Shown here in pieces: positions 1,741 to 51,489 of a DNA stretch of 64,000 bases. The notes under the pieces are model-generated. The model searched no databases. It saw only the letters and a program-made list of their open reading frames with translations, and was not told the DNA's origin. The first letter of the stretch is position 1; every line of letters begins with the position of its first letter. The stretch is from Kiritimatiellia bacterium. GTDB taxonomy: Bacteria > Verrucomicrobiota > Kiritimatiellia > RFP12 > UBA1067. A program made the translations under genes and the position numbers. Where the stretch lies: NCBI GenBank assembly GCA_028686345.1, contig JAQUCE010000002.1:42735-106734 (forward strand), given 5' to 3'.

Positions 1741-1917
1741 CTGCCAAAAGAGTTTGTGTGATGGCCGCGAGGTCGTCGCCTGGCTGCGAACAGTGCCGAC
1801 GAGGACATCAGCACTCTACGAACGACCTTGCAATGTAAACGTACACTTTGTCGCAAGCTTTGTCGTAAACTTTGTTGGAGTGGAATGAACGCGCCACGTT
1901 GTTTTTGAGGTGAAAAT
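1741..1917 (+). repeat. Dispersed intergenic repeat family 4 copy (related copies at 12700-12945, 14599-14880, 40449-40620 reverse-complemented, plus fragments at 36200-36290, 36660-36720, 47940-48000, 48500-48600)
   Basis: Shared blocks seen by eye, e.g. ctttgtcgcaagctttgtcgtaaactttgttggagtggaatgaacgcg...cgttgtttttgaggtgaaaa and caatcgtcggtcaacatcgtcgcacag. Confidence 0.6.
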
Positions 1918-2110
1918 GTTTTCTGCAGGCAAGATGCTTGCACTACTCCATTATCACTTTTACGGTAACGTCTCAATAACACGCTTTGGAGCAGCCTTCC
2001 TCCTCCGCCAAGGCTACGGCGCGACAAGAAAGGCTGGACAACAAACCTTATGCAGCAGCCGTTTGTTGTTCACGCTTCAGCGGGCTCTTTGTTCTCTGAC
2101 TGGTTATTGA
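1916..2110 (+). repeat. Structured ~170-nt dispersed repeat family 2 copy (candidate small RNA or MITE). Other copies are at 19640-19830 (reverse strand), 40726-40890 and 44690-44870.
   Basis: Conserved core: gcaagcaagatgcttgcactactccattatc...ggagcagccttccgtcttcgcgcttcg.agctacgccggacacggaaaggctggacaacaaaccttacg..gcagccgtttgttg. It contains nested inverted repeats: gcaagca/tgcttgc, cagccttccgt/acggaaaggctg, caacaaac/gtttgttg. Confidence 0.6.
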
Positions 2111-2235
2111 AAAACTACCTTCGCGAGTAAAGAGGTCGGACAAGCAACGTAGGTCTGATTTCGAATCGGACATCTCCGGTTGTAAACCGGAGCTACAGAA
2201 GATCGGCATACTGCAACAGGTATGTGAAAAGCGCG

Positions 2236-2360
2236 TCCTAGGGTGTAGGGTTGCTTCTCAGAAGCAATTAGCGGATGCCAGCTGGTTGTTCGCCAAAGGT
2301 GCGCCAAAGGATTTCATGATCTTTGTTTGGTTCATCCGTCTTCAGGCTTCACAAAAGCTA
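2236..2360 (+). repeat. Dispersed repeat family 3 copy (related copies at 12380-12560 and 36420-36600 reverse-complemented; fragments at 48460-48500 and 55830-55880)
   Basis: Shared string gtagggttgcttctcagaagcaattagcggatgcc.g.tggttgttcgccaaagg...atctttgtttgg.tcatccgtcttc. Confidence 0.55.
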
Positions 2361-3109: not shown

Positions 3110-4336
3110 CTACTCCTTACGCAGCGCAACAACAGGATCCATGCGCGCGGCTCTCCAGGCGGGCAGGAAACTGGCGACCGTGCAGAACATGATCACCGAC
3201 ATCGCCACATTCACCACCTCAGAGGGGATGATCCGCCAGGGGATGGCATTCAGCCCATAGATCGCCTTGGGAAAGACCTCCACTCCCAGCATACCCAGCC
3301 CATTCACCATGGACTGCAAGTTGTACAAAATCAGGAAGGCCGCGACGATCCCCAGCAAGGTTCCGATCAGACACTGGATCCAGCCGTAAATCACAAAGGC
3401 GCCCATGACCTGGCGCGAAGAGAAACCCAGTGCCTTGAGCAGGCCGATCTCATCGGTTTTCTGCACTGTCAGCACAATCAAGGTGTTGGTGACACAGAAA
3501 ATAGCAACGACCGTGATAAACATCAGCAGAATCACCATCATATTTTTCTCAACCGCCAAAGCATTGAAAATCTGGCGGTCGATCTCCTGCCAGGTCTGGA
3601 CTTGAAAATTGGGTGTGATATCCTCAACCCGTCCCACAACCTTGTTGAAAAACTCAAAATTGGCGGGTTGTTCGGTCTTGAGGTGGATGGAATAGACCCC
3701 TGAGCTCATACCCATCAGGTCGCGCGTCACGGCCAGCGAGGTGATAATGTAACCAGAGTCAAAGTCACGCTGCCCTGACTCGAAGATCCCTTTGACAATC
3801 AAACGGTCGGGAAAGTAGACCTCATCCGTGGAAACCAGATTCATAGGCGAGTAGACGAGCAGATCGTCGCCAACGTCCACCCCAAGTTCCTGTGCCAGAT
3901 CAGTGCCCAGTACCACGGCGTCACCGGTCACATCAAACTCACCCGCGCGCATGTGCTCCAGTTGCATAATATTTTTCGCGCGCACCGGATCCACTCCGAT
4001 CAGCACTGGGGCCACCACGCGCCGGTGATTTTCCACCAGCACCCTGGTCTCCAGTGACGGTGAGGCGGCTTTGACCCCCTCCACCAGCTCCAGCCGGCGG
4101 CAGAGGGCCTCCTCATCTTGGATGACCTTGCCCGCGAACGCACGGATGATGATATGGGGTTTGAAATCCAGGATCTTCTCCTGCCACATGTCGCCAAAAC
4201 CGGTCATCACTGCGCGCACAATAATGATAATGGCCACACCCAGCACAACACCGAGTACCGAGATCAGCGAGACTACCGATGTGACAGTGCGCTTGGGTTT
4301 CAAGTATTTCAGCGCCAAAAAAAGCGAAAAAAGCAT
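3110..4336 (-). CDS. LolC/LolE family lipoprotein-release ABC permease (FtsX-like with MacB periplasmic domain)
   Basis: 408 aa with N-terminal TM1, a large periplasmic domain, then 3 C-terminal TM helices typical of FtsX/LolCE. It is adjacent to the LolD-like ATPase. Confidence 0.75.
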   Translation of the reverse strand: MLFSLFLALKYLKPKRTVTSVVSLISVLGVVLGVAIIIIVRAVMTGFGDMWQEKILDFKPHIIIRAFAGKVIQDEEALCRRLELVEGVKAASPSLETRVLVENHRRVVAPVLIGVDPVRAKNIMQLEHMRAGEFDVTGDAVVLGTDLAQELGVDVGDDLLVYSPMNLVSTDEVYFPDRLIVKGIFESGQRDFDSGYIITSLAVTRDLMGMSSGVYSIHLKTEQPANFEFFNKVVGRVEDITPNFQVQTWQEIDRQIFNALAVEKNMMVILLMFITVVAIFCVTNTLIVLTVQKTDEIGLLKALGFSSRQVMGAFVIYGWIQCLIGTLLGIVAAFLILYNLQSMVNGLGMLGVEVFPKAIYGLNAIPWRIIPSEVVNVAMSVIMFCTVASFLPAWRAARMDPVVALRKE

Positions 4337-4420
4337 ATAAATTCTCAGTAGCGTCCCATAATCGCTTAAGCGGCTAGAAAAAACTATTAATTGTTCTTTC
4401 CCAAAAGTTGTTTATTGTGG

Positions 4421-4590
4421 CATCATTGCGGATATACTTCGCAATCATCCACCGCATAGCGGCGGATATACTTTACAATCATCCACCGCATAGCGGCGGA
4501 TATACTTTGCAATCATCCACCGCATAGCGGCGGATATACTTTGCAATCATCCACCGCATAGCGGCGGATATACTGTGCGTGGCTCTTAAA
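4421..4590. repeat. Tandem array of a 34-bp unit ATCCACCGCATAGCGGCGGATATACTTTGCAATC (4 full copies plus partials). Each unit holds the hairpin core CCGC-ATA-GCGG.
   Basis: The period-34 repeat is read directly from the sequence and is contiguous, with no unique spacers. The same 26-bp core recurs as inverted pairs at 14893-14961 and, diverged, at 51301-51375. Confidence 0.8.
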
Positions 4591-4612
4591 GGCCGAAGCA
4601 CATGCGTCCGTA

Positions 4613-6196
4613 TTACAGATTCCCGACATCAACCTCAATATCGCCGGTGTCGGTTGAGGTAGCCTCGATCTCCGCTTCAACCTGGACCGCTTCGCGGCTG
4701 GTGGTTGGCAGGTTGCGGTAGTATACCATCAATTGAAGCGCTACCAGACAGGTGTCCATCACCGGACGGTCGGTGTGCGCGTCAACGTTTTCCCACCACC
4801 CAATATCCTGATCTTTGCCGTTCATATCTTTGATCGCGTTTTTTGTAATCTTTTGGGCTTTGATATAAACCGGCTTCATCTCGGCGTTCCAATTGGCCCA
4901 GCGCTTACCGCCAGCATGAAATTTGGCTTGCGTTGCGTAGTAAAAATAGTACTGCGGGCTTCCGCCGACCTTATTCTCCTTATCAAACTCTCCGATACTC
5001 CACCCATCCATCAGATCCTGTGATTTGCGCACTGTGGTGTCGCTGCCAGCTCCCAGCAGCTGCAAACACAGCACACCCACGGCGGTCAATCCACCGCTGC
5101 CAGGCGAGGTATAACCGAACCCGCCATTCACAGCTGCATTGGCCTTAAAACCCTTAACCGAGTCCCGCATCGACTTGTCCAGCCCGTCAACATCGAGCCG
5201 CGCCAGTTTGCCTGCTTTAAGCGCCTGGGCACACCATCCCATATAAGAGGTGTCATCACGGTATTTTCCGCTCTCGGGGTCGACACCGGGGAAGAGTTTG
5301 TAGGTCCAGCCGCCAGTTGGGTGCTGTCCTTTGATAATCTGCTCCAGCGACTTTTCGGCGGCATACTTAACATTCGGATTCAGGGTCATGCCGTAGGCCT
5401 CGCACAATGCGTATGAGGCAATGGGGTGATCATAGTTGTTACCGCCGCCTGGCAGCAAACCGTTGTCGCGCTGTACCTTCATCAGATACTCCAGAGCCTT
5501 GCGCACAGTTTCGCCAAACTCCGGCGAGTCACCGGGTTTCTCTCCGTGAGCTAAGAAGGTCAGCACTCCCAGGCCGGTCATGGCGACCTTATTCTTGCTC
5601 CAGCTTCCATCTGCGTTCTGATTTTTCTTGAGCCAGCGCAGTGCCCGCATCACCGCCTCTTCGGTCTGTTTATCGCCGCCAAAACGGGCCAGTGAGGCGC
5701 CACGGGTGCCGGTATTACGTATATCGCCATAGATATTTTTAAGAATCACGGGACTTTTCACATTCATGACAGTGTCAAACTCCTGAGGCTGGGGGCTCAT
5801 GGGAGTGTCCTGCACATTCTCGACGCTCACATTCGGGGTGTCAACAGGCACGTCAATCTCGATCTGCTCCATATCTTCAGGCGGTTTCTCCAGGACTTCA
5901 ACGTCCTCCAGCTCCTGCATCTCCTCAGCCTCCATGATCTGCGTCTCAATAATCCGGTCATCGGTGACCGAAGCATTCGACAACACAACCAGCAACAGAA
6001 CCGAGAGCAGCGGCAACAGAACAGCTGAAATCGGGGCGGAGAGGCGCTGAATTTCAATCATCGCCACTTTATAAGCTCTGGAGTCACGCGGCGCTTTTAA
6101 GCCGGTGAAGAGCTTTTTCATCCGCTTGATGTAGGACTCATTGCCATACATCTCGGCGATCTCTGCGAGATTCGCATCTACCTCATTGAAATCCAT
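4613..6196 (-). CDS. TonB-topology membrane-anchored protein with a C-terminal prenyltransferase/squalene-oxidase (QW-motif) alpha/alpha-toroid repeat domain
   Basis: 527 aa with a ~50-aa cytoplasmic N-terminus, a single TM (ISAVLLPLLSVLLLVVLS), an acidic/Pro-rich linker (EEMQELEDVEVLEKPPEDMEQIEIDVPVDTPNV...PQPQEF), then QW motifs (LRWLKKNQNADGSW, IIKGQHPTGGWTY, MKVQRDNGLL). RBS AAGGGTGG lies before the ATG at 6196. Confidence 0.6.
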   Translation of the reverse strand: MDFNEVDANLAEIAEMYGNESYIKRMKKLFTGLKAPRDSRAYKVAMIEIQRLSAPISAVLLPLLSVLLLVVLSNASVTDDRIIETQIMEAEEMQELEDVEVLEKPPEDMEQIEIDVPVDTPNVSVENVQDTPMSPQPQEFDTVMNVKSPVILKNIYGDIRNTGTRGASLARFGGDKQTEEAVMRALRWLKKNQNADGSWSKNKVAMTGLGVLTFLAHGEKPGDSPEFGETVRKALEYLMKVQRDNGLLPGGGNNYDHPIASYALCEAYGMTLNPNVKYAAEKSLEQIIKGQHPTGGWTYKLFPGVDPESGKYRDDTSYMGWCAQALKAGKLARLDVDGLDKSMRDSVKGFKANAAVNGGFGYTSPGSGGLTAVGVLCLQLLGAGSDTTVRKSQDLMDGWSIGEFDKENKVGGSPQYYFYYATQAKFHAGGKRWANWNAEMKPVYIKAQKITKNAIKDMNGKDQDIGWWENVDAHTDRPVMDTCLVALQLMVYYRNLPTTSREAVQVEAEIEATSTDTGDIEVDVGNL

Positions 6197-6216
6197 AGTG
6201 TTCCACCCTTCTTTTG

Positions 6217-6621
6217 TCAGATACTAAAGATCGACAGGTTGGTCATGCCATTCTTGTTGCAGATATCCAACGACTGCACCAGAAAGGCATGCGGTGAGTC
6301 GGCGGTGCATTTAATGACAATCATCGCCGTCTTGCTCAGGTCGGCGTAACGTTTGATCCTGCGGTCAAGCTCCACTAAAGAGACAGGCCGTCCATTCAAA
6401 ATAAACCCCTGGGGCGCGACCTGGATTGTGATCAATTCGGGCTGATTCTCTTTTCGCGCTCTTGGATCCGCAGCTGGACGAGCTGCGGAAAGTTTTGACA
6501 GGATGTCCTCCTGTTTAATTGTCACAATAAAGAAAATCAACAACTGAAAGACAACATCAATCATTGGTGTCATGTCCAGTTTCGGGGTCTCTCCTTTATT
6601 TTGTTTTCTTACATAAGCCAT
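6217..6621 (-). CDS. exbD: ExbD/TolR family biopolymer transport protein
   Basis: 134 aa, LDMTPMIDVVFQLLIFFIV signature. Confidence 0.85.
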   Translation of the reverse strand: MAYVRKQNKGETPKLDMTPMIDVVFQLLIFFIVTIKQEDILSKLSAARPAADPRARKENQPELITIQVAPQGFILNGRPVSLVELDRRIKRYADLSKTAMIVIKCTADSPHAFLVQSLDICNKNGMTNLSIFSI

Positions 6622-12239: not shown

Positions 12240-12950
12240 TCTGCGAGCGATATGAAAGATGGGCCGCCGCTGGTAGAGCGGCATTTTGCAGCAGACCCGT
12301 GAAAGGCTCGCCCCGGGGTGTAGTAGCCGCTCTATGAGCGGCATTTTGCAGCAGACCCGTGAAAGGCGCGCCCCGGGGTGTAGGGTTGCTTCTCAGAAGC
12401 AATTAGCGGATGCCGGGTGGTTGTTCGCCAAAGGATTTCACTATCTTTGTTTGGCTCATCCGTCTTCGTCCCGCAACCCGGCTTCGCCCTCAAGCGCTGC
12501 TGCGTCGTGGGATGGCGGAACTACGACGGACAAGTTCCGCCAACCCTACACGTTTCCACTGTGATGAAGCTTGCATGTCGTACGACAGGCGCGAGTACGC
12601 GAATGCGCGAATGCGCGAGTTAAAGAGATGGAGACTTTTATGCGACGCAACGCAGCTCCGATTTTCAATCGGACATGTCCGGCTGGAAACCGGAGCTACT
12701 GCGGTCGGACATCTCCGGTTTGCGATAGCGGCGGCGACGATGCTGGTTGACAAGCCCGCGCATGACCCCAATCGTCGGTCAACATCGTCGCACAGTATCG
12801 TCGGCCGCAGCGGCAGGGCACGGCCTCCACCGCGCCGCCTGAACGACCTTGCAGCGCAAGCGCAAACTTTGTCGTTAACTTTGTCGGAGTGGAGTGAGGT
12901 TTTTCAAAAACGTGCGTGAAAAACAACGCAGCGCACTCTCCGTCCCCTCT
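12240..12950. repeat. Mosaic repeat block: a 63-bp direct duplication (12268-12392), then a family 3 copy (12380-12560), then a family 4 copy (12700-12945)
   Basis: Direct comparison with the copies at 2236-2360, 36420-36600, 1741-1917 and 14599-14880. ORF-track ORFs inside this block (e.g. 12410..12919) are judged spurious. Confidence 0.6.
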
Positions 12951-14526: not shown

Positions 14527-14598
14527 CCTGCCGCAGCAGCTAGTCAGGCAACCAAATGAGTTGCGCAACACGCCAATGATCAGGCGCGCAGTGTGTCA

Positions 14599-14880
14599 GC
14601 CGCACCTTCGGTTTACGATAACGGCGACAATGCTGACCGACGAGCCCCCGCATGATCCCAATCGTCGGTCAACATCGTCGCACAGCATCGTCGTTCGATG
14701 TCGCTGGCAGAGCGGCTGCTACACATGCGCTGCACTGCGGAGTGCAAGAGAAAATCAGTGCCTGTCCCCAGAAAATCCCTAATCTCAATCTTAATCATAA
14801 GCGTAAATTTTGTCGCAAGCTTTGTCGTTAACTTTGTCGGAGTGGAATGAACGCGCTACGTTGTTTTTGAGGTGAAAAAT
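14599..14880 (+). repeat. Dispersed repeat family 4 copy
   Basis: Shares cggtttacgata.cggcgac.atgctg...caatcgtcggtcaacatcgtcgcacag...tttgtcgcaagctttgtcgttaactttgtcggagtggaatgaacgcg with the other copies. Confidence 0.6.
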
Positions 14881-14892
14881 CTTAGCGGTGAA

Positions 14893-14961
14893 AAATGGGC
14901 ATCCACCGCATAGCGGCGGATATACTGAAAGCAACACAGTATATCCGCCGCTATGCGGTGG
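14893..14961. repeat. ~66-bp near-perfect palindrome built from two inverted copies of the 26-bp core ATCCACCGCATAGCGGCGGATATACT (the same core as the 4421-4590 tandem array), ~60 bp upstream of the ROK kinase gene
   Basis: Read directly: catccaccgcatagcggcggatatactg-aaagcaacac-agtatatccgccgctatgcggtggatg. Confidence 0.8.
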
Positions 14962-15019
14962 ATGATTGTGAAACAAGCCGCAATAAGGCCCGATAGACAA
15001 CTTTCAGGAAAGAATATTT

Positions 15020-19639: not shown

Positions 19640-19830
19640 AGGCGGGCAACCAAAAGAGTTTGTGAACAACAAAACCGCTGCGTAAGGTTTGTTGTCCAGC
19701 CTTTCCGTGTCCGGCGTAGCTGCGAAGCGCGAAGACGGAAGGCTGCTCCAAAGCGGATTATTGAAAAGTGACCCCTAAAATGATAATGGAGTAGTGCAAG
19801 CATCTTGCTTGCGGAAAGCAACGCGCCAGC
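19640..19830 (-). repeat. Structured repeat family 2 copy (reverse orientation)
   Basis: The reverse complement matches the 1916-2110 and 40726-40890 copies over ~170 nt. Confidence 0.6.
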
Positions 19831-19976: not shown

Positions 19977-22900
19977 CTATCGCAGTATCATCAGCGTGCC
20001 GACCAAACGGTGGAGTGTGACAACGCCGACATCGTAATCATAGTTGATGCTCCAGCTCGACGGCAGGTCATCTGAGGTAAATGTACCGCTTAGGGCTCCG
20101 CTGCACTGCAAAATGGTGTAGGACAGCGCCGTTAATTTCTCAGGATCCTCAATCCTCAACGCAAGAGAGCTGATATCAATATTACCTTGAACATTGATGC
20201 AATCCGCACTGCCCGGGCCGGCGGTGAATGAGTAATTGCCGGCGAGTGAGGGCGAGCCGTCGAAGGTCAGAGTCCCAACCGTACCAACCCCGCCCGGTGC
20301 AACAGAGCCTGTGACAATCAGACCGTCACAATCCATGACAGTGCCAGAGCCCGCAATCGCAGCCAGTGTCTGCGGCAAGTAGCTCACATCAAACACGGCG
20401 TTGCTCTCAACAGTGGCAGAGCTGGCCGGGTTGAGACGATTGGCACCGCCGCTGAGGCGCAGCGTGCCGCCCGAGACAATGGTTTCTCCAGTGAAGCTGC
20501 TGACACCCGTGAGGGTCAGCATGCCGCTGCCGGCTTTATTAAACAGAGCCAGATCGGATATGCTGCCGCCAAAGGTGGTATCACGATTGTCAAGGCCAAC
20601 TCTCAGCTCTGCCGCGCCTGTCGCGCTGCTCAGAACATGGCCGTCACCGCGCAGCGATGCAACTGCCTGAACCGAGTCTGCCAGATCCAACACTCCGTTT
20701 TTCTCAATGACCAGAGCGGTTGTTTGCGGCAGGACATTGGTCAGCACCGTTGACTGCGTGCTGCCGAACCACTTGAGATTCAGATATCTTTCAACAACTT
20801 CACGCTGCGAGTTGCTCAATGCGGTTTTGTAAACCAGCACTTCGCCGATGTCACCAATGTAGGAGCGGTGCTCAGTCACATGGCCCCAGTAATCGCCGAC
20901 CGCGCCTGCAAATTTTCTGACAGCTACCGAAGTGGCGGCCAGTACGTGCGGCGTGCCCTGGATGTAGCTTCGGGTATTAACCCCGTTGACATAGAATGAA
21001 GCGCCGCGCGCAAAATCATTTTTATCGCCATCCTGCCACATGGCTGCACTTGCTGCACGGACACCAAAATCCGCCCCTTTGCTGCCCCAGATACCTGAGA
21101 GGTTCATCTGTCCTGTTTTGTTGTTGACGATCAGCACGGTCTGATTGTCAACAACGTTGGTGGCATAGAGACGGTTCCAGTTGCCATCAAAGCGAACGGC
21201 CCCTTTGCCGTTGATGGCATCACTTACATAGGAAGGATACTGGTTGTAGGCATCGCCAATCTCCTGCACAAAATGGTTGTTGTTGCCGCTTGAGTCAGCC
21301 CAAGCAACCACATTTGCGCCAGAGAGGGTCACTGTGTCAGGGGTGCTGGCATCCAGCTGATAGGCAAGATCGCTTCGGTAGGGAACCTTGCCAACCGAGG
21401 CTGAGAGTTTAACGGTGCCCTCTGAGATTGTGGTTGCTCCCTGGTAGCTGTTGCTGCCGCCAAGAACCAGCGTGCCTGCGCCGTCTTTGTTCAGGTCAAT
21501 GATGTTGCCGCCATCGTTGATTGAACCCCAGTAGATTGACTCTGAGCCAGCGGCAACATCAAGATTCAACGCAGCCGAGGCTGCGTTGCTATTGGTAATG
21601 CTCCCGATGCCGCTCAAAGAGTTGATCGTGATGCTCTGTCCGTTCACATCCATGATGCCGGAGATACCGACTTGCGGCGAAACCGCGTTGGAAGCGAGGA
21701 CAACAGAGCCGGCAACCACCTCAATATCGCATGCAACCGCACCTGCGAGGGTCAGTGCACCGCTACCGACTTTCTTCACTACGCCTGAGCCCTCAATCTT
21801 GTTGGTGACAGTTCGGGCCGAGCTGTTATCAAAGAGCAGCGTGCCGCAGTTCACAACATCACCGATACCGAGAGTGCCGCCTTCATCAACCTGCAGTGTC
21901 CCTTGGTTGATAACGGTGCGTCCCTGGTAGCTGTTTTGTGCGCCAAAAATAATTGTGCCCGATGGTCGGTCAGCACGATGAGTGTTAATCTCCAGGTCGC
22001 CGGTTCCGGTAATAGGCTGGGAGAAGCGTCCTGATGACGCAACTCCATCCGCGCCAACACGCGCAGTGCGCATTAACTCAACCGGGGCATCAATTACGCC
22101 CTCGTTTTCATTGAGGAATGTTACCGCACCGTGGACGTAGTAGAGAGGGCCACCCACGCCGGCCAGGTGCATGGGGTTGGTGATGGTGCCGGCAAAATTA
22201 AAGAGAAAGCAGCCGCCCACCAGGTCGCTGCCATAGATATAAAGATCACCGGAGCTGAAGCCCTGAGGGCTGGCAAGGGTTACCCGTCCATTGAGAATAT
22301 GGGTATCACCAAGATAGGTGTTGCCGGCCGGCGCAGTCAGGTTCAGGATCTCGCTGTTGCCATATCCTGCAATTGTCAGCCCGTTGTCTCCGGTAATGGT
22401 TGAGCTGATGGTATGGCCAGGCGCATTGTAGTTATCAATGTAAATAATGCCCTCTGAGCTCTGAAAGTCAAGTGTCCCCCCGAGCAACGCGCTTCTGCCG
22501 GCAGAGTCACGATTAAGGATCAGGCCAGCTGGATTGACACCATCGCCGATGGTCAGGGTTTCGCCGCTGTTAACAGTCAGGTCAGCTCCGGTCAGGCGCA
22601 GCCCATGCACATGAACGCTGCCCGTGGCAGTGTCAGCAGAGAGCGTTGCAAGTGAGGACGCGCCGCCGCCCAGCCCGGTGGTGTAAGTGGCATCAATCAA
22701 TCCATTGACCCCGTTATAATTCAGAAAAGAGCCGCTGTACCAGCTGCTGCCACCCCAGATGATACCCAGGATAGACGGAGTTACCATGCCGCTGGTTGTG
22801 TTCAAGCCGCCGTTGGCTATTATTTTTTCATTCACGCCGAAGTTTGCAGCACCCAGCCCGCCGAACGGTGCCACCAGCAGAACGCCATGGTCCACACGGT

Positions 22901-24981
22901 TTAAAGCCGAGTCAGGTGTGGCGGACGGATGGCCGATCTCCAGCGTCAGAGTTCCGGCTGTGGGTTTGTGCAAACTCAGGCTGGCCACGCCTCCGCCAAA
23001 GCTGAGCGAATCAGCGGGAGCGGCATTGGCAAATTTTTGAACCAGGAGTTCGGAGCCTGTCGACCCGGACTGGACGCGGATCTCGCCATGCTCGATATGC
23101 ACTGTATTGCTGCCCAGCGGTTGCGCGTCCTTGCTCAGGGTGCGCAGCAATCCGTCCCGCACAACTGTCTTGCCTGTGTAGCGCATATGGTTGCTCAAAT
23201 CAAGCCGCCCGATGCCGCTCTTGATTAACCCGCCGTCTTCTCTGCCGAAAACTCCGGAGTAGAGGGTTGGCTGGAAAGCATACTGTCCACTGGCAGCAAC
23301 ATCAATCCGTGCTCCGCCATCTAACACCGAGAAGGTTGAATAGAGCGGATTATCATAGGTTGTTGTATTAACTTTTGGGCGGAGTATGCCGCCGTTAAAA
23401 TTAAATTGGATGGTATTATCGACATCGCAGTTGCCAGCGTTGTTGTCTAAAGCATTGAACGCCAGAGTTCCGCCAGACAGCTCAACCCTGGAATCGCTGC
23501 CACTCGTGCCTTTGCTCATAAGCTGGATGGTACTCCCATCAACAAGGGCATTGTTGGTCAAAATCAGGTCATGCGACCAGCCATCGCTGGCCAGCCGCTG
23601 CGTGCCTTCCATTGTCACCCTGCCATCCCCGGCGACCTTCAATCCAAGGCCGCGCGGGGGATTGACAAAACGGATGTTGAGCTCTCCGCCGCTGACAACG
23701 CCATACACGCGGTTGGTGTTATTCATTCCCCTGGAGACATTAAAGTTGGCCTTTCCGCCACTCTGAGTGTACATAAAATTTCTCTGGCTATTAGCACCAA
23801 AGTCAGAGCTGAAATGCCAATCGCCTCCAGTTACGTTGAGAGCAGATAGAAGATTGTTATTGTTGTAAGCAAGATTTCTGCTGCTCCCTTGATTCAGTGT
23901 GATGGAGGTGTTTCCGCTGAGCGCACCCTCGCTGACAACACTTATCGAGGAGTCAATAAAATGGCCGCCGTTGACAACCAGGCCCAGCCCTTTGTCAACC
24001 CTGATCGCCAGATTGGAGCTGCTGCCGCCGCTAATGGTTGCGCTGCCGCTGTTGATATTCAACTGGCCGCCCTGCATATCCAGCGAGCCCAAGGCAATCT
24101 CAGAGGAGCGGTTTTTATTGATGTTGCCAAGACCGGTGATAGAGTTCGGATAGGTCATCGCATCTTTGTTCTCAATATTGAGTGCTCTGCCGCTCATGAT
24201 TGTGATGCAGCTGGAGTTGGTGATGGCACCGTTGTAGGTGGCACCGTCACCCACAGTCAGGGTGCTGCCCTTGACAATGGTCGGGCCGGCATAGGAGGTG
24301 TCGGCCAATACCGTCAAGGAGGCCGGCCCTGCTACGGTTAACCCGCCTTTGCCATTAACATCCGCTTTAATGCTGGATGTCCTGGCCGCTGTTCCCAGTG
24401 CCAGCTGAATCGGTTTGCCATCCTGAGATTCGAGCGTAATGGGATTAATACTATCCAGCCAGCCGATGCCGAAATTGACAATTCCGGGCGCAAAACCAAG
24501 CAGTGTCCCAGTGACCTCAGTATCAGAGTAACCCACCTGTTCAAGGGTGTTTGCTCCGCCCAGAACAAATGTACCCGCCGATCGCACGGTAATACTTCCG
24601 CCAGCGGTTCCGTAGGCATATCCAGAGAATGTCAGGGTTCGTCCCTGCAGCCGGCAGGGCATTGGAGCAGTGAAGTTGGTCACAACTCCCTCACCAGTGA
24701 AACAGCCGATATTGTCCGTCTTGCCATTCAAATCAACCGTATGTGAAGGGAGAGACGATCAGCATTCCAAGCGTGAAACCAGCGTTGACAACGACTGGAG
24801 CGGACACCGATCCGTTAAATGTGGCGGAGCTGCCGACACCGTCGGCAATCATGCCCGCTTCCCAGTTGGAGGAAACACTCCATGTGCCACCCGCTGTGTT
24901 GGACCAAACCCCGTCAGCGGCAAAAACCGTTGTAGAGCAGAAAAACGAAGCAAACGCTGTAGCAAACATAAGTTTTTTCAT
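19977..24981 (-). CDS. Giant secreted autotransporter-associated beta-strand-repeat / pectin-lyase-fold adhesin-like protein. It appears interrupted by a frameshift near 24731-24736: an 82-aa signal-peptide fragment (24733-24981) plus a 1584-aa body (19977-24731).
   Basis: The N-terminal fragment MKKLMFATAFASFFCSTTVFAADGVWSNTAGGTWS (signal peptide) ends at TGA. The body resumes in the +1 frame with an open upstream reading (..LNGKTDNIGCFTGEG..). Repeated GxGxLxLxGxNxYxGxTxIxxGTL units are present (e.g. DGAGTLVLGGSNSYQGATTISEGTVKL). Confidence 0.7.
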
Positions 24982-27076: not shown

Positions 27077-27283
27077 ATTTCTCTTCCCTGTTATATTGCT
27101 TGAAATATCCCTTGCCACTACTGCTTTGCAACACAGAGCCGCTTGGCCGGAGCAAAGTCTCAAATCCAACTGAGGGCTATTCTCTCAACTCCTGTCGTAA
27201 ATAACAAGAAACTTAGGCAACCTTTTTGCCAAAAATCAACTAAAGCCCTTGACATAGAGGGTCTCTTGAGTTACAAGCATTCT

Positions 27284-30200
27284 ATGGCTTTTAAATTATC
27301 TTCACTGTTTTCTCGTGCGACGCGTGATTCATCCAGGCGTACCTCAGCACGCACCCCTCGTCGGTTTGGGGGCTCTCGGCGTATGCGCCGCCCCAATTAC
27401 AGCAAACTGCGTTGGCGCGATATTTTCTCTGAAAGAGCCATCCGTTTTCTCTCCTCCTCCCTGGCAAAAGGACGGCGCGGCCGTGATCTGGCATTGGGTC
27501 GGGACGAGCCTTTGCGCGCCGAGTTGCTCAGCTTACAGCAGATCACCCCCTTTGCCAAGGAGTTGGCGCAACAGCACCAGGTGGCAGCCGGACGCGGGGC
27601 TGACAAACTCCTGCCGCAACTGGCTAAAAATCAACGCGCCTTGTACCGCTCCTACGACATTGTCGGCGCGGCGCTGGCGCAGGGACGCCAGCTCGAACCA
27701 GCGGCAGAGTGGCTGCTCGATAACTTCTTCCTCGTTGAGCAGCAGATCAACGATGCCTACCTTCACCTCCCGCGCGCCTACAGCCGCAGTCTGCCTCGTC
27801 TGACAGCTGGCGCGATGGCCGGCTTTCCCCGGGTTTACCATATGGCAATCGAACTGATCGCGCACCTGGATGGACGATTAGAGGCGAACACTGTCACCCA
27901 GTTCGTCTCCGCCTATCAGGAGATTACCCCGCTGCGTTTAAGCGAACTCTGGGCCTTTCCGATTGCCCTGCGTCTGGGGCTGATCGATAATTTGCGCCGC
28001 GTGGCAGCGCGGATCGCCCGGCGGCGGCGCGAGCGCGACGCTGGCATTGCCTGGGCCGAACGCATGATCGCCACCGCCGCCGAGCAGCCGCAACGGTTGA
28101 TCCGACTGCTGGCGGAATTTGCCGACAGCGAGACTAAACTCACCGCGCCGTTCCTGGAAGAGTTCAGCAGCCGATTACGGGGCCAAGGCATGGCACTCGC
28201 CTTTGTTCTGAACTGGGTTGAGCAAGCCCTGGCCGACAAGGGCACCAACGAACCCCAGCAGCTGCAAGCCGATAGCCATGCGCAGGCCGCAGAGCAGGTC
28301 TCCATTGCCAACAGTATCGCCAGTATGCGCTTCCTTGGCGCGCTGGATTGGAAAGAGTTTGTCGAAACCCTCAGCGTCGTGGAACATACCCTGCGCGGCG
28401 ATCCAGCCAACGCCTATTCAGAGCAGGATTTTGCCACGCGCGACCGCTACCGCCATATTATCGAACGCCTCGCCAAGCGTAGCGACCAAGATGAAGCAGC
28501 AGTCGCACGTAAAGTCGTTGAGTTGGCACAAGCGCACGCCGACCATGATGACGCGCGTAAGAGCCGGGAGTCGCACATCGGCCACTACCTGATCGGCGGC
28601 GGCGCGCAGCAGCTCACCCGGGTGCTGAAGTGCCGCGGCCTCCTCTGCGAATGCGCCTTGCGCCTGTGCACGCGTTACGCGCTGCTCCTATATCTTGGCC
28701 CGATTTTTATGATCACCGCTGCGGCCACCGCCGCCACCATACCCTGGTTTTCCAGCCTGGGCATGGCCTCGCCGCACTTTTGGCTGTTTGTGATCACAGC
28801 CGCGATCGGCGCTTCCGCGCTGGGGGTCTCGCTGGTCAACTTTTTGGCGACCCTGCTCGTCCCGCCGCGCCCGATGCCACGGCTTGATTACTCCCAGGGC
28901 ATACCCTCAGACCAGCGCTCCATCGTGGTCATCCCCTGTTTACTCAGTAACGCGGCAACCGTTGAACGGCTGTTGGAAGCGCTTGAAATCCGCTACCTCG
29001 GCAACCGCGATCCGAACATAGGCTTTGCTTTGCTCAGCGATTTCGTCGATGCCGAGAGTGAGACCATACCAGCTGACGAGGAGTTAATTGCTCTGGCCCG
29101 CGCAGGAATCGCAGCTTTGAACGAGCGCTACCAAACAGCTGAGCAGCGCGCGCTTTTTTACCTGCTCCACCGCCCGCGCGTTTGGAACCCGATCGAAAAT
29201 CAGTGGATGGGCTGGGAGCGCAAGCGCGGCAAGCTGGAGCAGTTCAACGCTTTCTTACGGGGCGAGGCGCAGGATGCGTTTTCAATCATCGACGGCTTCC
29301 GCCCATTTTTACGCGCAGTCAAATACGTGATCACCCTGGATGCCGACACCGAGTTGCCGCGCGGCGCGGCGCACCGTTTGGTGGGTGCCATGGCGCACCC
29401 CTTGAACCAGCCGCGTATCGACCCCAAAACCCGCCGCGTTGTTGAAGGCTATGGCATCTTGCAACCGCGCGCCTCGATCCGCTTGACCGATGGCCAAAGC
29501 CGCTTTGCCTCCCTTTTTTCAGGCGCGACCGGTTTGGACCCCTACACCCGTGAGGTCTCAGATGTCTACCAGGATCTCTTTGGCGAAGGCTCTTTTGTTG
29601 GCAAGGGCATCTATGATGTTGATGCCTTCCGCGAAGTGCTGGAGGGGCGTTTTCCTGAGAATCAAATCCTCAGCCACGATCTGCTGGAGAGCTGCTATGC
29701 CCGCTCAGCGCTGTTGAGCGGTGTCGAAGTCTATGAGGACTTCCCTGCCACCTATCTGGGTGAGATCAGCCGCCAGCACCGCTGGACCCGCGGCGATTGG
29801 CAGATTCTGCGCTGGCTCTTCCCGCGCCCGCCCACCAGCACGGCTCAGCGCGACTCCAACCCGCTCTCAGCCCTCAGCCGCTGGAAGATCTTCGACAACA
29901 TCCGGCGCAGCCTCGTGGCCCCCGCCTTACTGGTGTGGCTGATTGTGGGCTGGGCCGTGACACCTGACTGGTCCTGGCTTTTCACCGGTTATGTGCTGGC
30001 GATCCTGTTCTCCAGCGGCATTCTGCGTACCCTCACTAACATTGTACGCAAGCCCGAGACCAGTGAGTGGCATCTCCATTTGCGCTCTGTTGGCAGCACA
30101 TTCGGCCTCTGTTTTGCCGAGCCGCTACTCGCCTTGGCCTGCCTACCCTACGAGGCCAGCATTACCCTGGATGCCTGCTGCCGCGCCACTGGGCGCTTTG

Positions 30201-33200
30201 GCATCACCCGCCGCGGTCTCCTGCTCTGGAACCTGCCGCAAGACCAGCGTCGTAATCAACGGCGCACCCTCGCTGGATTCTTAATCGAGATGTGGCCGAC
30301 CGGCTGCTTGACGCTGGCCGGCGTGGCTGTCTGCTGGCTGGTGCCGGGCCAGCCCCTTGCCCGCCTGCCACTGATCGGCGCCTGGCTGTGCGCCCCGCTG
30401 ATCGCCTGGTGGCTCAGCCGCCCGCCCCGCGCCGCCACCCCTGAGCTGGCCCCCGCGCAAAAACAGTGGTTGCGGGCGCTTGCCCGCCGGACATGGCGCT
30501 TCTTCGAGGTCTTTGTCACCGAAGAAAACCAGTGGCTGCCACCTGATAACTATCAGGAAACACCCGCGCCCGAGATCGCCATGCGCACCTCGCCCACCAA
30601 CATGGGGCTGGCACTGACAGCCAATTTGTCGGCCTGGGACCTTGGCTACCTGTCAACAGGGCGGCTACTGGAACGCACCGAGCATATGCTGAGCGCCATG
30701 AAGCAACTGGAGCGCTATCGCGGCCACTTTTACAATTGGTATGACATCCAAAACTTGCAGCCCCTGCGTCCGCTCTATGTCTCCAGCGTGGACAGCGGTA
30801 ACCTGGCAGGCCACCTGGTTGCACTGCGGGGCGGGCTCAGTGACCTGCGACAACAACCAGCTCTCTGCCCGCGGGATCAGATCAAGGCCGGTTTGCGCGA
30901 CACCTTGAGTGTGTTGCGGCAAGAGAGCGGACGCCGCGCGCCACCACTCTTGGCGCAGGCGTTGGCAGCCGCCAAAACCGCAGTTCAGGGACTCCCGCTC
31001 GCTGATGAGAGCGACTTTCGCACACCGCTGGCAACCACCCTGCAGGTCGCCGCGCTACTCTGTAATGCCGCCGAACCTGTGGGAGGCGAGGTGCTAGCCT
31101 GGGCCAATGCGTTTATGGCGCAGTGCGAGGACCATGTTGCCGACATAGATCTGTTCGCGTCGGGCACCCGTACCCAGGCACATGCCCTCTCCCTTGAAAT
31201 GCTGGCGCAAACACCTGACGCTGACAATGCGCCGGCCCAACGCCGGGCAGTCACCCGGCTCCAGAGCATCACCAACCTGGAGCGGGTGTGCGCGGAGATG
31301 GAAGCCGCGATGGACTTCCGCTTTCTCTATGACTCGGCGCAGAACCTGTTGAGCATCGGTTATGATGTCAGTGCCCGTCACCTTGACCCCGGACGTTACG
31401 ACATGCTGGCCTCCGAGGCGCGTCTTGCCAGCTACCTGCTGGTGGCCAGTGAGCAGGCACCGGTTGACCATTGGTTCGCTCTGGGCCGGCTGCTCACACA
31501 ACACAAGCGAGCCACGGCCCTGCTATCATGGAGTGGCTCGATGTTTGAGTACCTCATGCCGGCCTTGCTGATGCCCCACTACCGCAACACGCTTTTGGAG
31601 CGCACCTGCCGGGCAACTATTGCCCGTCAGATCCACTATGGCCGTCAGCGCAACGTTCCATGGGGTATCTCTGAATCATGCTACAACGCCCGCGATGCCC
31701 GACATGTCTACCAATACCGGGCCTTTGGTGTCCCGGGTATGGGGTTAAAACGCGGTTTGGCCAATGATCTTGTGATCGCGCCTTATGCCACACTGCTGGC
31801 CCTGCCGTTCGCACCGCAAGAGGCCTATGAGAACCTGCGCCGACTGGTGAGCCAGGAGCGCGCCCTTGGCGCATATGGATTGTACGAGGCCATCGACTAC
31901 ACCCGCTCCCGTGTGCCTCACGATAAAACAAGAGAGGTCATACGCGCTTTTATGGCCCACCACCAAGGCATGGGGCTGATTGCCATGGCCAATCTGTTGG
32001 TCGGCGGACGGATGATCGAACGCTTCATGGCTGATCCCGCTATGCGTGCAACTGAACTGCTGCTCCAGGAGCGCATGCCACAGGCGCTCTCACTGCTGCA
32101 GCCATATGCCCGCGAAGCCGGAGCCGCCACCGAACCAAAGGACGATAAACCGGAAGCCGTGATGCGCGTCTTCTCCGATCCCGACACCTTGGTCCCGGAG
32201 GTTCACTTCCTCTCCAATGGCAACTACCACGTAATGGTCACCCACACGGGCGGCGGCACCAGCCGCTGGCATGATCTGGAGATCACCCGCTGGCGGGAGG
32301 ACGCAACCTGTGACAACTGGGGCTCGTTCATCTACCTGCGCGACGTCGGCTCAGCCGCCGTGTGGTCGGCGGCCTTCCAGCCAACCCGTGATCCGGGCGA
32401 GGACTATGAGGCCATTTTCACACAGGGACGCGCTGAATACCGCCGCCGCGACCATGATCTTGAGACCCACACCGAGATCTGCGTTTCGCCCGAGGACGAC
32501 GTGGAAATCCGCCGCGTGACCCTCAACAACCTGGCACGCCGTCCACGCCGCGTTGAATTGACGAGTTTCGCCGAGGTTGTCCTGGCACCCCAAAACGCCG
32601 ACTTAGCGCACCCGGCCTTCTCCAAGCTCTTCCTGCAAACCGAGGTGTTGCCGGATCGGCAGGCGATCCTATGCACACGCCGCAAACGCTCCCCTGAAGA
32701 TGTCACCCCCTGGCTCTTCCACCTGTTGATTGCGGTCGAAGCCGACCAAGCGCCGACCTTCGAGACCGACCGCGCCAACTTCATTGGCCGTGGCCGCACC
32801 GCTGCCAATCCAATTGCGATGGACGCGCCGAGAGATGAGCCAGCCCCGCTCTCCAATACCGCCGGCGCGGTACTGGACCCGATCATTGCTGTGCGCCAAC
32901 TGCTGGTCGTCCCTGTTGACCGTGTGATCACCACACACCTTGTCACCGGCGTTGCCGCAACCCGCGAAGCTGCACTGCATTTGATCGAAAAATACCAGGA
33001 CTGCCACTTTGTTGAACGCGCCTTTGAAATGGCTTGGTCCCACAGCCAGATCGTTATGCGCCAACTGGCTGTCAGCGAGGCCCAGACCCAGCTTTATGGA
33101 CGGCTGGCCAGCTCCATCATCTATGCCAACGACCACCTCCGCGCGCCAGCCAGTGTGATCGCGCAAAACCGCCTGAGCCAGCAGAGGCTGTGGCACTTCG

Positions 33201-36037: not shown

Positions 36038-36059
36038 GGGTTAGGGGTTAGGGGTTAGA
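36025..36059 (+). repeat. Heptamer microsatellite (GGTTAGG)x5 (equivalent to TTAGGGG) overlapping the ndvB stop codon
   Basis: Read directly: ggttaggggttaggggttaggggttaggggttaga. Confidence 0.8.
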
Positions 36060-36720
36060 GGATAGGGGTGTGGTAGTCGAAGGTAGACCAAGGGCATCGA
36101 AGGTAGTCGAAAGAAGCCGCTTGCTGCAAAATGCCGCTGGTAGAGCGGCTACTACACCGAACGACAACCCGTGCATCCCGCAGTGCAGCGCATATGTAGC
36201 AGTCGCTCTACCAGCGACATTGGTTGACGATGCTGTGCGACGATGGCGGTGGACGATTGGGATCATGCGCGCTCTTCCACCAGCATCGTCGCCGCTATCG
36301 TCAACCAAAGGTGCAGCGGATCTCAGTAGGTCCGGTTTCCAACCGGACATGTCCGATTGGAAATCGGAGCTACGTTGCTCCCGCACCAACGCGCGCTTGC
36401 GCCTGCCGCGCGACATGCAAGCTTCACTCAAGTTGAAACTGTAGGGTTGGCGGAACTTGTCCGGCGTAGTTCCGCCATGCCACGGCGTAGCCTCGCTAGC
36501 GGGCGAAGCCGGGTTGCGGGACGAAGACGGATGAGCCAAACAAAGATTATGAAATCCCATGATGCGCCTTTGACAAACAACCACCTGGCATACGCAAATT
36601 GCTTCATAGAAGCAACACTACACCCTAGGGCGCGTTTTTCACGAACTAAATCATGATCCTAGTCAAGCTTCGGCCGACGATGCTGGGCGACGATGTTGGT
36701 GGACGATTGGGATCACGCTA
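36060..36720. repeat. Mosaic intergenic repeat block (family 4 fragments, family 3 copy in reverse orientation)
   Basis: 36420-36600 is the reverse complement of 12380-12560. 36200-36290 and 36660-36720 match the family 4 core gcgacgatg.tggttgacg...caatcgtcc. ORF-track ORFs here are judged spurious. Confidence 0.55.
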
Positions 36721-36726
36721 CAAGCT

Positions 36727-37743
36727 TCAAGCAAATCCATTCGGATTCATCGACTGCCAGCGCCAGGCATCCTCGCACATCTTGTTGAGGTCGCGCTCTG
36801 CCTTCCAGTTCAGCTCTGTGAGCGCCAGCGTAGGATCAGCCCAGCAGGCGGCGATATCGCCGGGGCGCCGCGGTTTAATCGTGTATGCCACCTTTTTACC
36901 GGAGGCCCGCTCAAAGGCTGTGACAACCTGCAGCACGCTGTAGCCATTGCCTGTCCCAAGGTTATAGATGGCCAGGCCGGGATCTGCGGCGAGCTTTTCA
37001 ATGGCGCGCAGATGCCCGAGTGCCAGATCAACCACGTGGATGTAATCGCGCACGCCGGTGCCGTCAATTGTGGGGTAGTCGTCCCCAAAGACCGAGAGGC
37101 ATTGCAAGCGGCCAACCGCGACCTGCGACACAAAGGGCAGGAGATTACTGGGAATGCCGGCGGGATCTTCACCGATCAGACCGCTCTCATGGGCACCGAT
37201 TGGGTTGAAGTAGCGCAGCAGCACGATGTTCCACTGTTGGTCAGCGGTGTGCACATCGCGGAAGATCTGCTCCATCATCAGCTTGGACCAGCCATACGGG
37301 TTGGTCGCCCCTGTGGTAGGGAAATCCTCGCGGATCGGCATGGCGTGTGGTTCGCCGTAAACAGTGGCCGAGGAGCTGAAAACAATGTTTTTACAGTTGT
37401 TCTCTGCCATCACCTCACAGAGTGTGATGGTGCCGGTGATGTTGTTGTGGTAGTACTTCAGCGGCTGCTCGGTGGATTCGCCGACTGCTTTCAAGGCTGC
37501 AAAGTGGATTACAGCGTCAAAGGGGCCGACTTCTCTGAAAACCTTCTGCAGCTCAAGTTTATTGCAGATATTCACTCTGAAAAAACGAACTTTCCTGTCT
37601 GTGATCTTTTCGACCCGCCGGAGGCTCTCCTCCACACTGTTGCAAAGGTTATCCACCACCACCACCTCATGCTCTGCCTGCAGCAGTTCCAACACGGTGT
37701 GACTGCCAATAAACCCTGCTCCGCCAGTAACGAGAATTTTCAT
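36727..37743 (-). CDS. galE: UDP-glucose 4-epimerase
   Basis: MKILVTGGAGFIGSHTVLELL Rossmann motif, YxxxK catalytic region, 338 aa, typical GalE length and motifs. Confidence 0.9.
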   Translation of the reverse strand: MKILVTGGAGFIGSHTVLELLQAEHEVVVVDNLCNSVEESLRRVEKITDRKVRFFRVNICNKLELQKVFREVGPFDAVIHFAALKAVGESTEQPLKYYHNNITGTITLCEVMAENNCKNIVFSSSATVYGEPHAMPIREDFPTTGATNPYGWSKLMMEQIFRDVHTADQQWNIVLLRYFNPIGAHESGLIGEDPAGIPSNLLPFVSQVAVGRLQCLSVFGDDYPTIDGTGVRDYIHVVDLALGHLRAIEKLAADPGLAIYNLGTGNGYSVLQVVTAFERASGKKVAYTIKPRRPGDIAACWADPTLALTELNWKAERDLNKMCEDAWRWQSMNPNGFA

Positions 37744-40414: not shown

Positions 40415-40448
40415 TTTCGTTTTCTATGCCCATTTTTCATTTCTAAGA

Positions 40449-40620
40449 TTTTTCACCTCAAAAACAACGCAGCGCGTTGATTCCACTCCGACACAGTTTG
40501 CGACAAAGTTAACGACAAAGTTTACACTTGCGCTGCAAGGTCGTTCGTGGGGCGCGGTGGAGGCAGAGCCCTACCGCTGCGGCCGACAATGCTGTGCGAC
40601 GATGTTGACCGACGATTGAG
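40449..40620 (-). repeat. Dispersed repeat family 4 copy (reverse orientation)
   Basis: Reverse complement of the 1741-1917 / 14599-14880 cores. Confidence 0.55.
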
Positions 40621-40725
40621 AGCTTGCGGGGGCCTAATCCTAATCATTATCCTAATCCCAATCCTCGTCTTTGTTGAATGAAGTACCTCAAGCTTCCAGC
40701 TTGAATGAAAATATCTTCTGCAAGC

Positions 40726-40890
40726 AAGATGCTTGCACTACTCCATTATCGCTTTTACGGTCACGTCACAATAATCCGCCCTGGAGCAGCCTTCCGTCTT
40801 CGCGCTTCGTAGCTACGCCGGACACGGAAAGGCTGGACAACAAACCTTACGGGGCAGCCGTTTGTTGCTAAAGCAGCGGTCTCTTAATCA
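40726..40890 (+). repeat. Structured repeat family 2 copy
   Basis: gcaagcaagatgcttgcactactccattatcgcttttacggtcacg...ggagcagccttccgtcttcgcgcttcgtagctacgccggacacggaaaggctggacaacaaaccttacggggcagccgtttgttg. Confidence 0.6.
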
Positions 40891-51375: not shown

Positions 51376-51489
51376 CAGCAATGATTTCAAAAGGTGCACA
51401 TGATGTCTTAGCGCAGATGCGTGGAAGCTCTGAGTTGAGTGTTCCTGTCCCGTGACCGGGATCTTTTTGCTGTAATTAGATAGCAGCTT

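Follow-up and report, generated by a model that had tools for sequence, protein, structure and literature searches.

The window analysed here, a stretch of 64,000 nucleotides of Kiritimatiellia DNA (contig JAQUCE010000002.1, positions 42,735 to 106,734), harbours a tandem array of a short hairpin at 4428-4578 (period 34, 4.4 copies, 96% matches in Tandem Repeats Finder). The array is located between two minus-strand genes, where it lies between the stop of a 527-amino-acid open reading frame (ORF; 4613-6196), itself downstream of ExbB/ExbD/ExbD, and the start codon, at 4336, of a LolE-like permease of the MacB/FtsX type (3110-4336), which is followed by an ABC ATPase. An initial annotation of the window had placed four and a half copies of a 34-bp unit between the lolE start and the stop of a QW-TonB-like gene, and both the array and its setting are confirmed. 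Four mismatch-free copies of the 26-nt core ATCCACCGCATAGCGGCGGATATACT are present on the plus strand within 4447-4574, and none would be expected in the window by chance (100 shuffles); in total, the window contains three hairpin loci. The hairpin is one arm of a repetitive extragenic palindromic (REP) element, the basic unit of which is an asymmetric inverted doublet comprising arm A, an 11-nt spacer (GAAAGCAACAC), an inverted arm B and a tail of ~85 nt. In the sense direction, arm A reads GTCCACCGCATAGCGGCGGAC-ATACT, that is, GTCCACCGC-ATA-GCGGCGGAC-ATACT, and arm B reads AGTAT-ATCCGCCGCTATGCGGTGGAT, that is, AGTAT-ATCCGCCGC-TAT-GCGGTGGAT. Within the array, the version of the hairpin with a G.T mismatch and a 5' AGTAT is on the minus strand, as are both flanking genes. 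The features of the array are as follows:

4428-4578, minus strand: tandem array, 4.4 x 34 bp, of an amplified B-type REP arm (Tandem Repeats Finder; repeat families D3/D5; oriented sequence)
4549-4569, minus strand: hairpin copy 1 in the direction of transcription, ATCCGCCGC-TAT-GCGGTGGAT
4515-4535, minus strand: hairpin copy 2
4481-4501, minus strand: hairpin copy 3
4447-4467, minus strand: hairpin copy 4
4428-4446, minus strand: terminal partial unit, GATTGCGA-AGTATATCCGC, joined to the tail
4359-4427, minus strand: conserved 85-nt tail found after B arms, here in a diverged copy

The junction of the terminal partial unit with the tail also ends the 34-bp arrays of two related loci, L003 and L028, and the diverged tail includes a near-palindrome (4377-4400) and a small hairpin, TAGCCGCTTAAGCGATTA, at 4359-4376. 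As RNA in the sense direction, the array folds far better than shuffled sequences (z = -5.1). A scan of 4250-4700 revealed no terminator-like site, and Rfam returned only three tRNAs for the window, with no match at the repeats.

The hairpin belongs to a dispersed intergenic family of REP type that occurs as doublets and clusters, with a covarying stem, a fixed mismatch and a 5' foot. Sequences were collected for containing the 21-nt hairpin, and ORF calling followed a simple greedy rule. When one genome per species was scanned for exact copies of the 21-nt hairpin, at least 31 loci were obtained, 29 of them from three Kiritimatiellia metagenome-assembled genomes (MAGs), namely SO_2017_CLC_139, GH19 and STCSWMC_75, and a metagenome scan added at least 50 further loci from seven sample or record series. 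A scan of viral contigs gave no matches. Two matches in the unrelated Micavibrio and Aquabacterium (L009 and L010), which are isolated and carry neither the AGTAT foot nor partner hairpins, were set aside as chance matches. The window shares 75-87% nucleotide identity with the three MAGs in syntenic genes, and its organism therefore belongs to the same group. After de-duplication, at least 77 distinct clusters are present in these related MAGs and metagenomes, so that the motif is neither confined to the three loci of the window nor lacking in related genomes. The simple inverted doublet is the commonest type (31 of the 77), alongside 15 singlets and 24 runs in the same orientation. The singlets resemble decayed doublets, and half-deleted arms are seen at L026, L021 and L028. 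All 40 clusters of the first set lie outside substantial ORFs.

The same-orientation runs contain 2-6 hairpins with periods of 29/30, 34 or 37-39 bp. In all 24 runs, as well as in the array of the window, a single arm is repeated with a linker of 4-12 nt; the amplified arm is the second, B-type arm in every ordered array, and most arrays start with a doublet. The linkers are alike within each array and unlike between arrays (TTGCAATC, TCGCAATC, TCTCAACC, GTGTTCGCAATC and TGGC), a pattern that points to amplification in situ, locus by locus, and not to a fixed unit being inserted. The dyad symmetry of the linker in the window (TTGCAA), listed as a feature in the initial annotation, is not conserved in arrays at other loci and therefore carries no weight.

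The hairpin is conserved as a structure, not only as a sequence. The dyad core CCGC-ATA-GCGG of the initial annotation does form a hairpin, but the stem is longer, comprising 9 pairs (ATCCACCGC/GCGGCGGAT) with one fixed mismatch. Across 23 distinct hairpin variants, with about 300 copies counted, compensatory changes are observed at pair 1 (A-T/G-C) and at pair 9 (C-G/G-C/T-A). Cells changed on both sides of the stem number 20, compared with 6.2 +/- 2.5 in shuffles, none of 500 shuffles being as high, and pairing is lost when the registers of the stem are slid. Position 5 of the stem is never Watson-Crick paired: one strand has G.T or T.T there and the opposite strand A.C or A.A. AGTAT precedes both arm types on the G.T strand.

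The two other loci of the window are inverted doublets, one upstream of a ROK-kinase gene and one of a second subfamily:

14798-14900, plus strand: left mosaic module, from CTTTGTCG repeats to TTTTTGAGGTGAAAAATCTTAGCGGTGAAAAATGGGC (D16, I5), an independent repeat also found without hairpins
14901-14926, plus strand: first arm of the inverted doublet (a REP doublet forming a hairpin, or REPIN); core match, B-like with an A-T closing pair, though in the arm-A position
14927-14937, plus strand: 11-nt spacer GAAAGCAACAC, identical to the canonical spacer of the MAG copies
14938-14963, plus strand: second arm, B type, AGTATATCCGCCGCTATGCGGTGGAT
14964-15019, plus strand: conserved tail; the 28-nt core is matched perfectly at 14974-15001
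51351-51376, minus strand: arm A of the second-subfamily doublet, GTCCACCGCATAGCGGAGGACATACT on the minus strand; core match with 3 mismatches
51311-51338, minus strand: arm B of the second subfamily, diverged, with closing pair 9 changed from C-G to T-A

Both palindromes had been recognised in the initial annotation, with coordinates that require correction from 14893-14961 to 14901-14963 and from 51301-51375 to 51311-51376. At the first, the core ATCCACCGCATAGCGGCGGATATACT is perfect on the plus strand at 14901-14926 and on the minus strand at 14938-14963, giving a palindrome of 63 nt (26+11+26) in which the arms form a 26-bp stem; as RNA, the region folds with -75 kcal/mol (z = -9.9). At the second, position 5 of the stem in the arm at 51351-51376 is A/A on the minus strand and T/T on the plus strand.

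RAYT-like genes (REP-associated tyrosine transposases) that are cognate to the hairpin are present in related genomes. An E. coli RayT probe, taken from NC_000913, matches ORFs in L073 (E 7e-7) and L055 (E 1e-4). The L073 gene (4231-4839) contains an HUH motif, HIHLL, and a tyrosine motif, RYIASNPVKAG, and is interrupted by one in-frame TAA (4576-4578), and the L055 copy (2000-2130) has lost its N-terminus to hairpin sequence. A search with the RAYT motif pattern NPV[RK]AGL gave no match, the pattern being too strict for the genes there, which read ...NPVKAGRV. The sole NCBIfam match is the REP-associated tyrosine transposase NF047646 (best 68 bits, E 6e-19), and the best match in the PDB is 4ER8 (TnpA-REP; E 0.012). 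The transposase is ~27% identical to E. coli RayT, and H108, H110 and Y170, corresponding to the HUH histidines and the tyrosine of YIxxNxVxxG, show no variation across an alignment in which E. coli RayT is included. Protein search retrieved 76 relatives, mostly intact and 200-215 amino acids in length; two relatives have a precomputed PF01797 match, and several are named RayT by JGI.

The L073 and L055 genes are set in alternating A-type and B-type hairpins that lie within 100 nt on each side, and in L089-L093 family hairpins are likewise found within 100 nt on both sides of RAYT-like genes; altogether, four independent versions of the gene are flanked on both sides by the family hairpin. RAREFAN uses a distance of about 200 bp between a RAYT and REPs as a criterion (10.1101/2022.05.22.493013), and such adjacency is observed here in related genomes only. 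The intact gene P0001 (67% identical), present in two samples, has the same arm A at its flanks along with an arm B that carries G-C at pair 9, and the intact P0002 (64% identical) is flanked by arm A and the T-A version of arm B, which is the subfamily, and at 51311-51338 the very arm type, of the window doublet at 51311-51376. The more distant P0004, P0029 and P0010 (56-58% identical) have different flanking stems in the same layout of a 5' AGTA and a stem, reading AGTAG-GTCAAGCGC..., AGTAG-GTCCGACCC... and AGTAA-ATCCGGTTGC..., respectively. Judged from these sequences, the hairpin co-varies with the transposase clade, which is the hallmark of REP-RAYT pairs.

We note that L073 (2682-5100) and L025 (1-8000) derive from the same MAG contig (JBAYXX010000013 / Ga0265294_10000436), which carries a CRISPR-Cas locus. 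A 37-nt sequence (GTCTCAAGTGACCAAATAGCCGAAAGGCGATTATGAC) is repeated there in about 30 units, accompanied by another short array and by Cas2, Cas1 and Cas_NE0113; next to Cas_NE0113 lies the RAYT pseudogene, and REP arrays with a period of 29/30 bp occupy every gap. A connection of the hairpin with CRISPR was considered and rejected: the array-bracketed ORF of L025 proved to encode Cas1, but the ordinary CRISPR of this locus uses another repeat, and Cas1 is thus a mere neighbour.

Copy number differs at the orthologous site. In MAG GH19 (L026), the orthologous spacer contains one hairpin and a half-deleted arm A, compared with 4.4 units in the window. The 25-nt hairpin is 100% identical between the two, the flanking genes are ~75% identical and the rest of the spacer barely aligns. 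The short-read contig L032, which encodes an identical ExbD, ends inside the first hairpin copy, and contigs with exact copies of the ExbD and ROK genes are short and end at the repeat. Breaks inside multi-copy repeats are usual in short-read assemblies, and the repeat family accounts for the breaks at such sites in these organisms. No exact copy of the window permease is on record, and a metagenome scan for the window-specific junction between flank and hairpin gave no matches.

On this evidence, the array very probably represents local amplification of one arm of a RAYT-linked REP/REPIN family of Kiritimatiellia, with REPIN-like doublets and clusters like bacterial interspersed mosaic elements (BIMEs). 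The initial annotation had suggested a REP/BIME-like family, and the dispersed intergenic doublets, the covarying stem with its fixed mismatch, the flanking by and co-variation with RAYT genes and the orthologous difference in copy number all support this assignment. Several observations weigh against it. The transposase scores 59.8-68.4 bits with NF047646, which is under the 80-bit equivalog cutoff, and has no match to Pfam PF01797 (Y1_Tnp) at E <= 0.01. No RAYT gene was found in the 64-kb window or in the first ~300 kb searched, and the RAYT link is therefore established in related genomes only, rather than in the window's own organism. Given the in-frame TAA of the L073 gene and the lost N-terminus of the L055 copy, current activity there is doubtful; both damaged copies adjoin the exact REP variant, and the transposase could be decaying in some lineages while the repeats persist. 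The adjacency of hairpin and RAYT also carries an ascertainment bias, the loci having been chosen for the hairpin, but this is lessened because relatives found by protein search alone have the same flanks. Finally, the amplification of a single arm, the 85-nt tail and the polarity of the element are unexplained by the textbook REPIN model.

In E. coli, TnpA-REP recognises an imperfect stem, in which the mismatch is required for binding, together with a conserved tetranucleotide, GTAG, at the 5' foot (PMC3479197). By analogy, the Kiritimatiellia RAYT presumably recognises the folded single-stranded hairpin via the mismatch at position 5 and the AGTAT at its 5' foot, and would disperse the element by cleavage and joining of single-stranded DNA, as for the E. 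coli enzyme (PMC3333891, PMC3479197). The 34-bp array would then have formed by head-to-tail local amplification of arm B with a short locus-specific linker, most likely through replication slippage, unequal exchange between adjacent hairpins or RAYT strand transfer, the last of which can assemble tandem BIMEs in E. coli. Copy number accordingly differs between loci and genomes. Once transcribed, the array would probably form a row of stable G.U stem-loops between the upstream TonB-system operon and the downstream permease gene, which could act as a barrier at the transcript end or to mRNA decay.

The element has a fixed polarity relative to co-directional genes. With flanking ORFs of at least 150 amino acids considered, the neighbouring genes are co-directional for 12 clusters, convergent for 4 and divergent for 1. 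All 12 elements between co-directional genes share their strand (p = 5e-4), and the element is therefore probably transcribed; read in that polarity, the amplified arm is the G.U version, which as RNA is more stable than the A.C version (-15.2 vs -11.2 kcal/mol). The ~85-nt tail, GATTGCGAAACAAGCCGCAATAAGGCCCGATAGACAACTTTTTGGAAAGAACAATTAATTGTTCTTTCTAGTCGCTTAAGCGACTA in the sense direction, adjoins a B hairpin, intact or as a remnant, in all 19 of its occurrences, and both canonical sites in the window carry it. Its consensus (L003-L031; window 4377-4400 and 14964-15019) contains a perfect 24-bp palindrome, with halves GAAAGAACAATT and AATTGTTCTTTC, which overlaps a Shine-Dalgarno-like GGAAAG; another small hairpin, TAGTCGCTTAAGCGACTA, comes next. 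The tail may act as a leader, an operator or a processing site, and a diverged form of it is present in MAG GH19 (L002, L026). The ORF that comes next after the tail shares its strand in 15 cases and is oppositely oriented in 4 (p = 0.02), such that leading into a gene start is only a tendency of the tail and not a rule. At the ROK-side doublet, the tail (14964-15019) is truncated, such that 8 nt separate its AGGAAAGAA from the ROK-kinase ATG at 15020.

These properties can be cited for a rival explanation in which the hairpins serve the host first of all as RNA elements and owe nothing to a transposase. As intercistronic stem-loops in mRNA, they would hold off 3' exonucleases, dampen read-through or shield neighbouring genes from each other, to a degree set by copy number, and the tail would provide the downstream gene with a shared 5' leader or Shine-Dalgarno cassette. 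The strict polarity, the G.U pair in place of A.C on the transcribed strand, the strong fold z-scores and the tails that run into start codons, as at the ROK gene, are all consistent with such a role, as is the one terminator-like reading found, in which antisense arm 1, in the arm-A position (14922-14900), is followed by CCCATTTTTC. However, this explanation accounts neither for the RAYT flanking and the co-variation of hairpin and clade nor for a G.U position that is never Watson-Crick paired in about 300 copies. Moreover, no U-tract follows the sense hairpins, neither a promoter nor a terminator was detected by scanning the array region, and four copies with a tail point towards the 3' end of a convergent gene. 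We consider it a possible but distinctly less likely origin; as a secondary, exapted role, it is compatible with a RAYT-linked REP family and need not compete with it.

A bolder variant, which we regard as unlikely, is that hairpin and tail together constitute more than a selfish REPIN, namely a domesticated, polar cassette that the lineage places before many unrelated genes. Amplification of the single arm (1 to 6 or more copies), driven by RAYT or by slippage, would then heritably tune read-through, mRNA stability or translation of the downstream gene. If so, the single-arm arrays would provide natural evidence for the 'second mechanism' of REP cluster formation that has been inferred, but never pinned down, in the Pseudomonas and E. 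coli studies. Two further roles for the element were tried and dropped. Consensus matching (a sigma-70 scan of the array and ROK-side doublet loci of the window, which gave no hits) lends no support to the tail as a promoter, and a CsrA sponge, suggested by the GGAUG in each unit, places the GGA inside the stem and has no other support.

The initial annotation had also considered an operator for a dimeric DNA-binding protein, and the repeats could accordingly be viewed as double-stranded operator or iteron sites, with the arrays as clustered binding sites. Dyad symmetry and regular spacing would suit such sites, as would the identity of 25 nt between genomes with flanking genes that are only ~75% identical. 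Yet the changes at pairs 1 and 9 are compensatory and preserve pairing within the strand, one position is kept asymmetric in all copies, and the periods of 29-39 bp vary by locus in a manner unlike the helical phasing of one protein. Divergent promoter regions are also rare among the sites (12 co-directional, 4 convergent, 1 divergent), and the same hairpin brackets a transposase gene, all of which makes an operator very improbable. Slightly less probable still is a miniature inverted-repeat transposable element moved by a DDE-type insertion sequence, with arrays arising from repeated insertion. The doublets are indeed inverted repeats dispersed between genes, and one locus contains an ORF with DUF4372 (IS4-like N-terminal), but neither a target-site duplication nor terminal inverted repeats other than the hairpins were seen in the oriented flanks, the one-sided tail makes the element asymmetric, the locus-specific linkers argue for local amplification over repeated insertion, and the only consistently adjacent transposase is of the Y1/RAYT type. 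A degenerate or spacer-less CRISPR-like array can be dismissed with near certainty, as the initial annotation had done, since the short palindromic direct repeats, despite their regular period and the Cas1, Cas2 and Cas_NE0113 genes surrounded by these arrays on one related contig, have no unique spacers and no cas genes near the window array, since the normal CRISPR of that contig (L025) uses an unrelated 37-nt repeat with unique spacers, and since the hairpin occurs at dozens of dispersed loci, most frequently as doublets (31/77).

The hairpin family is embedded in a wider mosaic of intergenic repeats. The module upstream of the doublet (...GAGGTGAAAAATCTTAGAGGTGAAAAATGGGC) is part of this mosaic and also occurs without hairpins; neither the tail nor the upstream modules match an Rfam family or a consensus promoter. 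Long modular repeats, 80-95% identical, in both orientations and in recombined orders, fill many intergenic regions of the window (1811-2343, 12266-12886, 14596-14900, 19677-19820, 36122-36733, 40426-40867, 44707-44797 and 47906-48595) and form a mosaic like that of BIMEs or Neisseria intergenic mosaic elements that is much larger than the hairpin family. A second REP-looking family, with the classic 5' GTAG foot (GTAG-TAGCCGCTC-TAT-GAGCGGC), has three copies in the window, where none would be expected by chance, at 12320-12342 (plus strand), at 36133-36155 (minus strand) and, weaker, at 14700-14722 (minus strand), and is also present in L025 at about 6479-6504. Given the AGTAG-type hairpins around related RAYTs, this family may be served by a separate RAYT. 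At the edges of the mosaic, a tandem heptamer (GGTTAGG x6.4, 36025-36069) and hexamer (CCTAAT x5.5, 40633-40665) are found.

Elsewhere in the window, TG-rich, microsatellite-like arrays of ATTTGTGTG and TGTGATT units, with up to about 12 copies, lie beside tRNA genes (62405-62609 and 56143-56180). The tRNA genes are at 56039-56108, 62742-62815 and 62836-62909, and a 108-nt segment that includes one tRNA is duplicated with 93% identity (55988-56095 vs 62691-62798). Close to the array, the cluster of ExbD and 527-amino-acid genes has a paralogous copy ~5 kb away (192-1620 vs 5178-6576, ~75% nucleotide identity; D2, D9, D12), and the TonB-type energy-transduction module is therefore duplicated. 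Two large proteins are also encoded, one of 2964 amino acids (27143-36037, plus strand) with GT2, glucoamylase-like and GH94 domains in an architecture like that of cyclic beta-1,2-glucan synthase, and a PATR-repeat protein of 1584 amino acids (19977-24731, minus strand).

For annotation, the array should be labelled a repeat region, and neither a CRISPR nor a regulatory operator. It represents a well-known kind of element in a little-studied phylum. To our knowledge, REP/REPIN-RAYT systems have been studied almost only in Proteobacteria, and our literature search found no paper linking RAYTs with Kiritimatiellota. The present family adds, for the group of Planctomycetes, Verrucomicrobia and Chlamydiae (PVC), a sequence-defined REP family, characterised by its two types of arm, its fixed mismatch and its AGTAT foot, along with a cognate, divergent RAYT clade. 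The arrays could serve as variable-number tandem-repeat (VNTR) markers in strain typing. Single-arm amplification and strict polarity are testable departures from known systems, which could show how REP clusters form and whether they are exploited by hosts.

Among modular intergenic repeats, the BOX elements of Streptococcus pneumoniae (boxA-boxB(n)-boxC) and the mycobacterial interspersed repetitive units (MIRU-VNTR) resemble the Kiritimatiellia family in that one internal module varies in copy number, in being oriented with transcription between co-directional genes and in their predicted stable RNA structure. Their modules, however, are 40-100 nt in length and are not REP-like hairpins with a guide-like 5' foot, and we know of no dedicated transposase for them. 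Closer similarity is seen with the E. coli 'REPtron' of REP/BIME elements and TnpA-REP (PMC3333891, PMC3479197), which shares imperfect extragenic hairpins of 20-40 nt with a stem mismatch and a 5' foot, two alternating arm types, a transposase gene bordered by repeat clusters and an enzyme with HUH and tyrosine motifs. As in E. coli BIMEs, where linkers are uniform within a locus and differ between loci (PMC3333891), the tandem copies are uniform per locus and vary in number between loci and genomes. The foot is distinct, being AGTAT (tetranucleotide GTAT) rather than GTAG, with AGTAG or AGTAA in the sister families, and what is amplified is one directly repeated arm of 30-38 bp instead of a REP/iREP pair. 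Further differences are the ~85-nt tail that is always on one side, the divergent RAYT that scores below curated cutoffs and the host itself, which belongs to the Kiritimatiellia (PVC group) rather than the Proteobacteria. In Pseudomonas, an inverted doublet that folds as one long hairpin is the predominant unit, and a second mechanism of formation has been inferred for ordered clusters (PMC3116915). The Kiritimatiellia family is similar to this REPIN-RAYT system (PMC3116915; 10.1101/2022.05.22.493013) in its predominant doublets, decayed-looking singlets and several subfamilies per genome, as well as in the REPIN clusters that adjoin each RAYT and the ordered tandem clusters that point to a second mechanism. 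It is distinct in that the tandem units of Pseudomonas are whole REPINs with their flanks, well over 100 bp in length, whereas here they consist of one arm, and in having a strict gene polarity and a fixed one-sided tail, neither of which is described for Pseudomonas.

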